Positions 1 through 504 of a stretch of DNA of 504 nt are shown in pieces. The DNA is from a phage. The DNA is taken from sequence record AF056261.1; one strand, written 5' to 3'. Numbering within the stretch: the first letter of the stretch is position 1; every line of letters starts with the position of its first letter. Under the pieces are notes generated by a model that worked only from the letters and a program-made list of their open reading frames with translations, searched no databases and had not been told where the DNA came from. Both the position numbers and the translations under genes were made by a program.

Positions 1-8
1 TCACAATT

Positions 9-233
9 TCACCCGGGAAANGNCCATGGNTTGGAGTTGGTCTTCNTCATCAATACCTTTCTGGGGAACCAGCATTGCTGTNACCAGATTTGGGCATCAT
101 CATCTTTATTCTCGCGACCTTCCATGAAGGCTTGAATTGCTTCTTTCTGCTCTTCATAGGTAGGAACCGGATAGGTTTGTTCCAGAGAAGGAACTTTTTC
201 GAACTTAATGATGTCNCCATCTTCGTCACACAT
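9..233 (-). CDS. hypothetical protein with acidic N-terminus (MCDEDGDIIKFEKVPSLEQTYPVPTYEEQKEAIQAFMEGRENKDDDAQIW...); true 3' end uncertain
   Basis: Six-frame track ORF with ATG at 233..231 and an in-frame TAG two codons upstream (239..237). Composition is charged and protein-like, whereas the overlapping plus-strand ORF is hydrophobic and looks like an antisense shadow. Codon 6 is GGN, so Gly regardless of the N. Codon 51 (83..81) reads TNA, which is a stop if N is A or G, so the ORF may end after 50 aa. Four Ns in 21-46 make the TGA at 11..9 unreliable. No clear Shine-Dalgarno upstream of the ATG (only a weak AGG about 3 nt away). Codon usage mixes CTG/CCG/CGC with AAA/GAA, compatible with a moderately AT-rich bacterium. 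Confidence 0.4.
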   Translation of the reverse strand: MCDEDXDIIKFEKVPSLEQTYPVPTYEEQKEAIQAFMEGRENKDDDAQIWXQQCWFPRKVLMXKTNSXPWXFPG

Positions 234-262
234 AGCCTAAGTGAGAACCACTATCATTTAAG

Positions 263-271
263 TTATCCACA
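263..271 (+). promoter_or_regulatory. DnaA box, perfect consensus TTATCCACA
   Basis: Exact 9-mer TTATCCACA read directly from the sequence. It lies 30-38 bp upstream of the minus-strand ATG at 233, where it could overlap that gene's promoter or 5' leader. Function is inferred from the well-established DnaA-box consensus. Confidence 0.6.
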
Positions 272-325
272 AGTTTATTAACAGCACAAAATGATTTGAC
301 ACGATAGGCGGGCGATGATAAAGAC

Positions 326-334
326 TTATCCACA
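326..334 (+). promoter_or_regulatory. DnaA box, perfect consensus TTATCCACA (first of tandem pair)
   Basis: Exact TTATCCACA, part of the 12-bp unit GACTTATCCACA at 323-334. Confidence 0.65.
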
Positions 335-337
335 GAC

Positions 338-346
338 TTATCCACA
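338..346 (+). promoter_or_regulatory. DnaA box, perfect consensus TTATCCACA (second of tandem pair)
   Basis: Exact TTATCCACA, part of the second 12-bp unit GACTTATCCACA at 335-346. It starts 12 bp after the previous box, about one helical turn, in the same orientation. Confidence 0.65.
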
Positions 347-348
347 GG

Positions 349-357
349 TTATCCTTA
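349..357 (+). promoter_or_regulatory. degenerate DnaA-box-like site TTATCCTTA
   Basis: Matches the first 6 positions of the consensus (TTATCC), then diverges (TTA instead of ACA). Starts 11 bp after the box at 338, same orientation. Could be a low-affinity site or a decayed third repeat copy. Confidence 0.3.
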
Positions 358-408
358 CTGGTATAAATATACAGGGTAAATGGGTAGTGTTAACAACTGC
401 AATCAATT
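358..408. other. AT-rich tract next to the DnaA-box array (candidate DNA-unwinding or promoter region)
   Basis: About one-third G+C by hand count (17 of 51). Contains TATAAATATAC (362-372, near-palindromic) and the 8-bp palindrome TGTTAACA (388-395). It sits between the box cluster and the stop codon of the downstream minus-strand frame. Function is inferred only. Confidence 0.3.
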
Positions 409-492
409 TTAAGCGGCTACCACTGCTTTATCCAAAGCATCCTTTGCTCTAGTATACGCAACGTACTCAAGTTGTTCTTTCTTCAACTGTTC
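409..492 (-). CDS. C-terminal fragment of a possible SF1-type (UvrD/RecD/Dda-like) helicase, interrupted by an in-frame TAG at 495..493; may be a pseudogene or a sequencing error
   Basis: Minus-strand translation of 492..412 gives EQLKKEQLEYVAYTRAKDALDKAVVAA followed by TAA (411..409). The LEYVAYTRAKDAL segment resembles helicase motif VI (roughly LLYVAxTRAK..L, remembered rather than searched). The frame is closed immediately upstream by TAG (495..493) and TGA (504..502), so an intact gene is not supported as the sequence stands. Too short to be listed in the ORF track. Confidence 0.25.
   Translation of the reverse strand, partial: EQLKKEQLEYVAYTRAKDALDKAVVAA
428..436 (+). promoter_or_regulatory. 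near-consensus DnaA-box-like site TTATCCAAA (one mismatch)
   Basis: 8 of 9 match to TTATCCACA. Lies within the putative minus-strand C-terminal coding fragment (codons L-D-K-A), so it may be coincidental. Confidence 0.3.
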
Positions 493-504
493 CTAGGATC
501 TTCA

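Follow-up and report, generated by a model that had tools for sequence, protein, structure and literature searches.

A cluster of predicted DnaA boxes beside a LexA-like palindrome, carried by a chimeric phage sequence, corresponds to the known IRC-spacer-IRD module of the BF23/T5 terminal repeat

The window analysed here, the whole 504-nt stretch of sequence record AF056261.1, is a concatemer made in vitro from three complete AluI/HaeIII fragments, all of them from a BF23-like (T5-like) phage. Judged by its sequence, the cluster of DnaA boxes that it carries is the already known IRC-spacer-IRD module of Repeat Region 2 in the BF23/T5 terminal repeat. Beside the boxes lies a palindrome that scores like a top-rank E. 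coli LexA operator. Taken as a whole, the explanation as a chimera that carries a known module is very probably the right one; the proposed role for host proteins is much less sure.

Results

The first phage piece, window 42-235 (minus strand), is an internal AluI fragment of the gene for D11, the ssDNA-binding protein, and encodes a C-terminal part of it (about residues 189-254 of 257; protein context EAMCDEDGDIIKFEK). It is 97% identical to positions 71895-72087 of BF23 (OR083247.1), where AGCT stands at both ends; the differences are N or single-base insertions. The ATG at 231-233 codes for an internal Met of D11. The last piece, window 417-496 (minus strand), is an internal AluI fragment of the gene for D13, the SbcC/Rad50-like exonuclease subunit 2, again with AGCT at both ends in BF23. 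It is identical to BF23, T5 and others at 77 of 77 positions and covers about residues 355-381 of 612 (protein context EQLKKEQLEYVAYTRAKDALDKAVVA). The piece between them, window 236-416 (plus strand), is almost certainly a 177-bp HaeIII fragment from the long terminal repeat of a T5-like phage, either BF23 or one nearly identical to it, ligated between the two unrelated AluI fragments. It is non-coding, carries the IRC-spacer-IRD module and corresponds to BF23 5350-5526 in the left/right terminal repeat, with GGCC at both ends. Compared with BF23 5349-5527 it is identical at 179 of 183 positions, and all four differences are 1-nt insertions in the window.

All six fragment ends coincide with AluI (AG/CT) or HaeIII (GG/CC) sites of the BF23 genome, and the three fragments are complete digestion products, as none has an internal AGCT or GGCC site. 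The junctions in the window read AG/CC and GG/CT (CACATAG/CCTAAGTG and TTAAGCGG/CTACCACT, the slash marking the ligation point), with not one AGCT or GGCC left in the window; the terminal-repeat and D13 fragments are joined at 416/417, and an apparent stop codon at 409-411 arises from a ligation junction. A natural arrangement, in which a recombinant or defective phage genome carries the repeat between D11 and D13, is favoured by the common phage type of the three pieces and, beyond that, by the sequence itself alone. However, such a genome would have to break precisely at AluI/HaeIII sites of BF23 six times and yield complete digestion products, D11 and D13 are cut in mid-codon-context, D12 is absent along with most of D11 and D13, and a search of 50,697 phage records found no single place that matches as much as 80% of the window. 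We reject a natural recombinant source on the restriction-site evidence and put its probability close to nil. The window also had no match in a plasmid collection, and an exact 39-mer scan of genome contigs gave none, the 39-mer used having carried two of the insertion errors of the window.

Since all six fragment ends lie at AluI/HaeIII sites of BF23, the gene context flanking the cluster is an artefact of blunt-end ligation. The preliminary description had seen two co-oriented minus-strand genes on either side of the boxes; these are the internal pieces of D11 and D13 and are not neighbours of the cluster. Its proposal of a DnaA-regulated promoter for a gene at 9..233 is refuted for the same reason: this open reading frame encodes a C-terminal portion of D11, whose gene is ~66 kb from the module in the phage genome.

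The window is a poor-quality Sanger-type read. Its start (1-41) contains four N and is without a phage match, the BF23 match beginning at 42. Positions 2-20 resemble the lac operator/M13-reverse-primer region of pUC-type vectors, with 16 of 18 positions identical to the vector sequence ACAATTTCACACAGGAAA; this similarity is a lead rather than a database match. The last eight bases (497-504, GATCTTCA) may belong to the next ligated piece or to vector. They have no BF23 match beside the D13 fragment, and comparison with vectors gave no convincing match.

The terminal-repeat fragment contains two pairs of DnaA/DnaA* boxes with 3-bp gaps in one orientation. Pair 1 (263..283, plus strand) consists of the consensus box TTATCCACA at 263-271, 3 bp, and a variant "DnaA*" box, TTATTAACA, at 275-283. 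In pair 2 (326..346, plus strand) both boxes are consensus TTATCCACA (326-334 and 338-346; conservation 0.88 and 0.91), and the GAC gap between them is near-invariant among the aligned copies of the module. In dinucleotide-preserving shuffles of the window, 0 of 200 contained even one exact TTATCCACA, hence none contained three, which confirms that the cluster is beyond chance. At up to two mismatches there are six matches against 2.06 expected, a number reached by 3 of 200 shuffles.

Two further near-consensus boxes, TTATCCTTA at 349-357 and TTATCCAAA at 428-436, share the orientation of all other copies in the window. The first appears from the alignment to be partly a read error: it has one T more than BF23, and BF23 and all relatives read TTATCCT-AC at this place. 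What is conserved there is only a third TTATCC(T) half-site (349..355, plus strand, 11 bp past box 2b; conservation 0.97). The second lies inside the D13 exonuclease gene (BF23 record 74199, minus strand) and is unrelated to the cluster. The original count of three perfect and two near-consensus boxes in one cluster thus holds for the three perfect copies, while the box at 428-436 is foreign, belonging to the D13 fragment. In the whole BF23 genome (104.9 kb) there are six perfect TTATCCACA boxes, five of them inside the two copies of the module, and the BF23 match bears out a phage provenance for these same-orientation boxes, which had been one of the options first considered.

The module is made up of the two same-orientation box pairs (9+3+9 bp), the extra TTATCC half-site and a 16-bp palindrome. 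Its left arm, AAGTGAGAAcCACTATCATTTAAG (239..262, plus strand; mean conservation 0.84 over 26 copies), is the start of inverted repeat C. In T5, window 236-416 has its homologues in "inverted repeat C" (6022-6060) and "inverted repeat D" (6112-6152), with 81% identity between the window module and T5 6022-6161, and the T5 record AY587007 annotates both repeats between the pre-early promoters T5P3 (minus) and T5P4 (plus). Davison describes eight DnaA/DnaA* boxes, in pairs 3 bp apart, in IRC-spacer-IRD and IRD'-spacer-IRC' of 25 T5-like phages (bioRxiv 10.1101/866236); the source that citing papers give for these T5 repeats is Heusterspreute et al. 1987. The T5 module resembles that of the window in its box pairs with 3-bp gaps and its palindrome, and the BF23 module is identical to it apart from read errors. 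T5 itself has a degenerate box 1b (TTATACATT) and, as box 2a, TTTTACACA; the corresponding boxes of BF23 and the window are TTATTAACA and TTATCCACA. Nothing of substance distinguishes the window from the T5/BF23 module beyond four single-base insertions and its being out of context.

In BF23 the source locus (5350-5526) is a non-coding gap between divergent pre-early operons, between BF23_00009 and BF23_00010, in first-step-transfer (FST) DNA. An inverted partner copy, IRD'-spacer-IRC' (9087-8956), lies ~3.5 kb rightward, directly left of the injection stop signal, so that the rightward pre-early operon is bracketed by two copies of the module with their palindromes facing inward. The T5 module shares both the site between divergent pre-early operons and the inverted partner, which in T5 lies in Repeat Region 3, the injection-stop-signal region. 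The same arrangement, a gap between divergent operons and an inverted partner near the FST end, is found in 9 other phages; the window, with its foreign flanks, does not itself show it.

The module is present in 557 phage records. For the family sample we took spread BLAST matches from the phage collection and aligned 26 copies from enterobacterial T5-like phages; IMG/VR contigs anchored on the 16-mer palindrome (>120) were mostly unrelated and too unspecific for family sampling. The boxes (0.84-0.91), the half-site (0.97) and the palindrome (0.95) are more conserved than the variable spacer (0.64), and half-site plus palindrome form the most conserved element of the module. The proximal part of the module, palindrome included, is retained in Vibrio T5-like phages, a few kb from the A1 gene. 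The boxes are conserved in relatives, and we did not find homologous regions that lack them among the aligned copies; the literature describes the module as missing or truncated in some T5-like phages (bioRxiv 10.1101/866236). Many copies break the consensus at box position 6 (TTATCAACA, TTATTAACA, TTATATACA), which would weaken DnaA binding.

The palindrome, at 356..376 of the window, reads TACTGTATAAATATACAGGG in BF23 and resembles a LexA/SOS box; the GenBank name for its partner copy in T5 is "palindrome D". Its centre is the AT-rich tract (about 362-371) that had been described as abutting the boxes, so this tract is part of a conserved palindrome that resembles a protein-binding site and is probably not an unwinding element. 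In the window an extra G (ctgGtat), probably a read error, breaks the left half-site and lowers the score to only 4.4. Scored against a matrix derived from 18 E. coli LexA boxes (PMC3009722, Table 4), the two BF23 copies reach 22.3 (5467) and 27.0 (8954), with a next-best score of 14.2 in the 104.9-kb genome and at most 16.3 in shuffles. In leave-one-out scoring, 17 of the 18 authentic E. coli boxes fall between 9.0 and 25.2, and polB scores 0.1. Both BF23 copies have the form CTGT-N8-ACAG and score in the range of authentic operators, and the partner copy, TACTGTATAAATATACAGTA, deviates from the LexA consensus TACTG(TA)5CAGTA at 1 of 20 positions. No paper naming the palindrome a LexA box was found, although Davison 2015, Heusterspreute 1987 and Wang 2005 may have noted it; the LexA component of the module appears to be unreported in the literature that we searched.

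A TTGACA hexamer occupies a fixed position in the spacer (296..301, plus strand), with its first four positions invariant and the last two conserved at 0.77 and 0.42. The 21 nt that follow it have an average conservation of only 0.64, no copy has a -10 element at 16-18 bp from it, and no promoter was called there. In BF23 a leftward sigma-70-like site, TTAACA-16-TATATT (10/12), places its -10 within the LexA-like palindrome; transcription from it would run across the DnaA boxes. The -35 of this site is not conserved in T5 or Epseptimavirus, and the flank of the partner copy is different; we do not rely on this promoter, given its lack of conservation in T5, Epseptimavirus and the partner copy.

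These elements bear on the possibility that the module is chiefly a transcriptional control. Host DnaA and LexA would then repress, time or insulate pre-early transcription by binding between the divergent promoters (the T5P3/T5P4 equivalents) and also at a second place, downstream of the rightward operon, with no role in DNA transfer; relief could come, for example, from LexA cleavage after A1-driven destruction of host DNA. The location in the gap between divergent pre-early promoters in both BF23 and T5, the rightward operon enclosed by inward-facing palindromes, the very high LexA score and the good leftward sigma-70-like site over the palindrome all speak for such a control. Against it stand the unconserved -35 of that site, a conserved TTGACA that lacks a -10 partner, and the position of the module, which does not cover the annotated promoters but lies more than 80 bp upstream of them. 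We regard a purely transcriptional function as possible, if on the whole unlikely.

A DnaA-dependent replication origin, serving as a secondary phage origin in the terminal repeat, could account for a cluster of same-orientation consensus boxes spaced by about one helical turn. An 85-bp very AT-rich stretch lies directly left of the module in BF23 (5260-5345, outside the window), and the skew shows a minor local inflection near 4-5.5 kb. However, the AT-rich stretch overlaps a predicted pre-early promoter and the local inflection matches the divergent operons. The skew analysis in genome context that had been proposed as a check places the global cumulative GC-skew minimum at 48-49 kb, beside the replication gene block and far from the module at 5350-5526. 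T5 encodes its own origin-binding protein. Its origins are reported to lie close to the middle of the genome, and when the FST DNA enters, the genes for phage replication are still outside the cell (bioRxiv 10.1101/866236). Moreover, the homologous module is apparently deleted in a viable T5 mutant, and some T5-like phages are without it. This mutant, "DLDR", has lost about 5393-9081, including 6022-6152, and forms small plaques; its end points were inferred from primer mapping on AY587007 and are not stated in the paper on the mutant. The module thus appears to be dispensable in T5. The suggestion of an origin finds no support in the skew or in the mutant, and we consider it very improbable.

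Discussion

The module shares several features with E. coli oriC: exact 9-mers of the R1/R4 type, strong boxes beside weaker ones in the same orientation, and an 11-12 bp periodicity. In oriC such an arrangement of strong and weak boxes supports cooperative DnaA oligomerisation. The analogy with oriC has also been drawn for the T5 boxes by Davison (bioRxiv 10.1101/866236). Unlike oriC, the module has no demonstrated unwinding element, lies off the phage origin, is present as two inverted copies 3.5 kb apart and is apparently dispensable. The palindrome is similarly close to E. coli LexA operators, with its CTGT-N8-ACAG form, an AT-rich centre and scores within or above the authentic range. It differs from them in belonging to a strictly virulent phage and in having no clear overlap with a conserved promoter.

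We propose, tentatively and with a likelihood for the whole mechanism that falls somewhat short of even, that the module offers host proteins a landing pad on the DNA that enters the cell first. The consensus box of each pair would nucleate DnaA, which could spread to the weaker box beside it, about one helical turn away, and the palindrome would probably bind LexA. The nucleoprotein complex so formed, perhaps joined by a bridge to the partner copy, may be an accessory, non-essential aid to pausing or organising DNA transfer, as in Davison's model, and/or may insulate pre-early transcription. Transfer stops about 3.5-4 kb beyond the Repeat Region 2 module. A contribution of this module to the pause would be auxiliary at most, because it is distant from the stop, absent or truncated in some phages and apparently dispensable. 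Two recent papers call the role of the T5 boxes experimentally open (PMC10644984; PMC13250531).

A bolder version of the landing-pad proposal treats the module as a composite host-factor site, in which a DnaA array joined to an almost perfect LexA operator would couple early infection to the host replication initiator and to SOS status. Conserved from T5-like phages of Escherichia and Salmonella to those of Vibrio, such a site in a strictly virulent phage could act on the pause in DNA transfer and/or on pre-early transcription. Cleavage of LexA after A1-driven destruction of host DNA might, for example, serve as a timer that releases the complex. This reading is speculative, and we give it only a small chance of being correct.

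The TTATCC(A/C)CA motifs and the palindrome might instead be bound by a pre-early protein of the phage, such as A2 or an A1/A2 complex, the resemblance to host sites being coincidence or mimicry. The annotation of A2 is that of a DNA-binding protein needed for second-step transfer. Box positions 5-6 vary in ways that DnaA should dislike while TTAT..ACA is kept, and conservation is highest in the TTATCCT half-site and the palindrome rather than in the complete 9-mers. However, the commonest box is the exact 9-bp high-affinity consensus of E. coli, and the palindrome outscores most authentic LexA operators. Both motifs also persist in Vibrio phages whose proteins are very diverged, and the specificities of DnaA and LexA are conserved across the Gammaproteobacteria. 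This combination of persistent motifs and conserved host specificity favours host factors, and recognition by a phage protein seems to us improbable.

As a discovery the cluster matters little: publications on the DnaA boxes of the T5/BF23 terminal repeat go back to 1987, and GenBank carries them as annotated repeats. The apparent gene context of the read is a cloning artefact and would mislead any annotation based on it. How T5 injects its DNA in two steps has been an unsolved problem for 60 years. The residual interest of the module is that predicted DnaA sites and a first-rank LexA-like palindrome lie together on a 177-bp fragment, which offers a cheap and concrete hypothesis of binding.

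Composition of the window

Three exact copies of the DnaA box TTATCCACA lie on the plus strand of the window (263–271, 326–334 and 338–346). Not even one exact copy arose in 200 dinucleotide-preserving shuffles of the window, and six sites match with at most two mismatches where 2.06 are expected, so the box pattern is real and non-random. The inexact boxes are TTATTAACA (start 275), TTATCCTTA (start 349) and TTATCCAAA (428–436), and all six matches are in the same, plus orientation. Two pairs are formed, 263–271 with 275–283 and 326–334 with 338–346, separated by the 3-bp gaps AGT and GAC, respectively. The copy at 428–436 is D13 sequence (BF23 74199) with no relation to the cluster.

BLAST against phage genomes breaks the window into three pieces, each from T5-like phages. 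The D11 and terminal-repeat pieces match BF23 (OR083247.1) best; for the D13 piece, identity is equal in BF23, T5 (AY587007) and many relatives. Positions 42–236 correspond to BF23 71895–72087, inside the D11 ssDNA-binding-protein gene, positions 235–417 to the non-coding BF23 5349–5527 in the left terminal repeat, and positions 416–492 to a segment inside the D13 exonuclease-subunit gene. In local alignments with BF23 the D13 piece is identical (77/77), the terminal-repeat piece differs solely by four 1-base insertions in the window, and the D11 piece solely by N positions, two 1-base insertions and one substitution in its poor-quality start. Read in BF23, the D11 and D13 pieces have AGCT (AluI) at each end and the terminal-repeat piece has GGCC (HaeIII) at each end, with neither site inside any of the three. 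The window junctions are the hybrids AG/CC (235/236) and GG/CT (416/417), and no intact AGCT or GGCC remains anywhere in the window. Such ends and junctions are characteristic of a complete AluI and HaeIII digest joined by blunt-end ligation. The ends of the window (1–41 and 497–504) gave no phage match; as a lead only, positions 2–20 resemble (16/18) what we take to be the lac operator/M13-reverse-primer region of pUC-type vectors. With 7 N and several 1-base insertions in addition, the window resembles an unprocessed, poor-quality read from a plasmid clone.

The genomic context of the cluster in the window is therefore an in vitro artefact. What was taken for a gene at 9–233 represents the C-terminal third of D11, with an internal Met codon (…EAMCDEDG…) as its ATG; the supposed end of a gene on the right comes from within D13 and owes its stop codon to the ligation junction. 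Neither is a real neighbor of the cluster, and the DnaA-regulated promoter proposed for the left-hand gene in the preliminary description falls with it. The BLAST placement suggested there assigned the cluster to the T5-like terminal repeat and the flanks to D11 and D13.

A conserved repeat of T5-like phages

The cluster belongs to a repeat that has been described before and is widely conserved among T5-like phages. In BF23 the terminal-repeat fragment separates the leftward pre-early operon of the terminal repeat (…BF23_00009) from the rightward one (BF23_00010…). The GenBank annotation of the homologous T5 stretch gives inverted repeat C (6022–6060) and inverted repeat D (6112–6152), flanked by the putative pre-early promoters T5P3 (−) and T5P4 (+). 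In the terms of Davison this IRC-spacer-IRD module is Repeat Region 2, and its inverted counterpart, IRD'-spacer-IRC', belongs to Repeat Region 3, which is presumed to be the injection stop signal; he described eight DnaA or variant DnaA boxes, invariably in 3-bp-spaced pairs, in 25 T5-like phages, and the first such boxes were reported in 1987 (bioRxiv 10.1101/866236). The two pairs in the window have the same architecture. The inverted partner in BF23 (9087–8956) is ~80% identical. Homology between the inverted copies extends past a 16-bp palindrome that follows the boxes (BF23 5527–5560 and 8900–8940; CCTAAAACGC…TTCTAACG…), and the HaeIII cut that ends the terminal-repeat fragment of the window falls right where this additional shared block begins. 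Repeat Region 1 has four more one-mismatch DnaA-like boxes (TTATCAACA −, TTATCCCCA +, TTATCCACT + and TTATCCACT −) clustered in a 75-bp stretch (BF23 5018–5093), which lies ~300 bp to the left of the module, beyond the window.

BF23, counted over 104.9 kb (the unique region with a single terminal repeat), has six perfect TTATCCACA boxes: five fall in the two modules of 130 bp each, and one is inside the receptor-binding-protein gene. The module was matched in 557 phage records, essentially all Demerecviridae. We aligned 26 copies from Tequintavirus, Epseptimavirus, Sugarlandvirus and metagenomic T5-like contigs, together with two Vibrio phages, and measured conservation as the mean frequency of the commonest base across the 26 copies. 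It is 0.97 for a third TTATCCT half-site, 0.95 for the palindrome and 0.84–0.91 for the four DnaA boxes, against 0.64 for the variable part of the spacer and 0.67 for the flanks. Most pairs hold at least one strict-consensus box (TT[AT]TNCACA) beside a variant. The Vibrio phages Cody (549–603) and PG07 (2208–2257) have only the proximal half, pair 2 plus the palindrome, within a few kb of the A1 (DNA transfer protein) gene. As the sole part kept in these distant Demerecviridae, the proximal half suggests an ancestral functional core. Loss of the boxes from relatives, which the preliminary description would have counted against itself, was not seen among the aligned copies: the boxes are conserved across those of the T5-like phages, and the Vibrio phages keep pair 2. 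The spacer also holds a TTGACA hexamer (window 296–301; BF23 5411–5416) at a fixed position in every enterobacterial-phage copy; its first four bases are invariant, the last two vary, and ~21 poorly conserved bases follow. No −10 element was found 16–18 bp from it, which makes a role as −35 box improbable.

Possible roles of the DnaA boxes

The preliminary description had proposed a replication origin. The cumulative GC-skew minimum of BF23 lies at 48–49 kb, where early transcription diverges, and adjoins the replication gene block, including an origin-binding protein at 55.5 kb. The terminal repeat is far from this minimum and shows no more than a minor local inflection, at the divergence of the two pre-early operons. 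T5 origins were mapped near the genome center, and the replication genes are still outside the cell when the terminal-repeat DNA is injected (cited and discussed, respectively, in bioRxiv 10.1101/866236). A 2026 preprint reports that the T5 mutant DLDR, deleted "from hegG to 017", is viable with smaller plaques. Its deletion primers map to AY587007 5360–5392 (−) and 9082–9107 (+), which implies loss of ~5393–9081, an interval with end points inferred from the published primers that takes in inverted repeats C and D (6022–6152) and leaves Repeat Region 3 intact; the preprint makes no comment on losing this non-coding element. IRC/IRD are also naturally absent from some T5-like phages (bioRxiv 10.1101/866236). 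Given this viable deletion and these natural absences, the Repeat Region 2 copy appears to be accessory. The skew minimum, the mid-genome origins and the inferred loss in DLDR together make an origin here very improbable.

Exact high-affinity-type 9-mers adjoin weaker boxes in the same orientation with a periodicity of 12, 12 and 11 bp, and DnaA specificity is the same across the hosts over which the module is conserved. This anatomy, which we liken to oriC and the dnaA promoter, is as expected for a putative site nucleating a short DnaA oligomer. The literature holds no binding or genetic experiments on these boxes, according to PMC10644984 and PMC13250531. Our leading, still tentative, mechanism is the DnaA-mediated role in the transfer pause proposed by Davison. 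By way of DnaA, the modules would retain the incoming DNA and thereby contribute to the pause that separates first-step from second-step transfer, with the Repeat Region 2 copy as auxiliary partner of the copy near the stop point. The position between divergent pre-early promoters also fits a purely transcriptional role on them, doubtful in itself and nearly as likely as the mechanism of Davison. Recognition of the repeat by a phage protein such as A2, in place of DnaA, seems improbable.

A LexA-like palindrome

Directly after the DnaA boxes lies the 16-bp palindrome CTGTATA(AA/TT)TATACAG (window 356–376; BF23 5467–5486; partner BF23 8954–8973), which reads TACTGTATAAATATACAGGG in Repeat Region 2 and TACTGTATAAATATACAGTA in Repeat Region 3 of BF23. 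The LexA consensus is TACTG(TA)5CAGTA. With a matrix from 18 E. coli LexA boxes (PMC3009722 Table 4), the Repeat Region 3 site (8954) scores 27.0 and the Repeat Region 2 site (5467) 22.3, compared to 0.1–25.2 for the 18 authentic boxes (leave-one-out), 14.2 for the next best site in the 104.9 kb of BF23 and a maximum of 16.3 in shuffled genomes. On this matrix the palindrome ranks with the best E. coli LexA/SOS operators. Between copies its two central bases switch from AA to TT and the arms are fixed, as would be expected for a dimer reading the arms. The palindrome persists in Vibrio T5-like phages, and CTGTAT-N4-ATACAG occurs in BF23 at these two places only. The left half-site is disrupted in the window by a single extra G, which, as with the remaining three insertions, is probably a read error. 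A leftward promoter-like site in BF23 has its −10 inside the palindrome and is not conserved. The exact 16-mer CTGTATAAATATACAG is also found in more than 120 viral contigs (IMG/VR), most far smaller than T5-like genomes, where the copies are presumably LexA operators of unrelated, perhaps temperate, phages.

The text of Davison (bioRxiv 10.1101/866236) mentions neither LexA nor SOS, and among the papers open to search none links a LexA box to T5-like phages. The DnaA-box repeat itself was already known, and the sole new lead for this phage group is a possible LexA operator.
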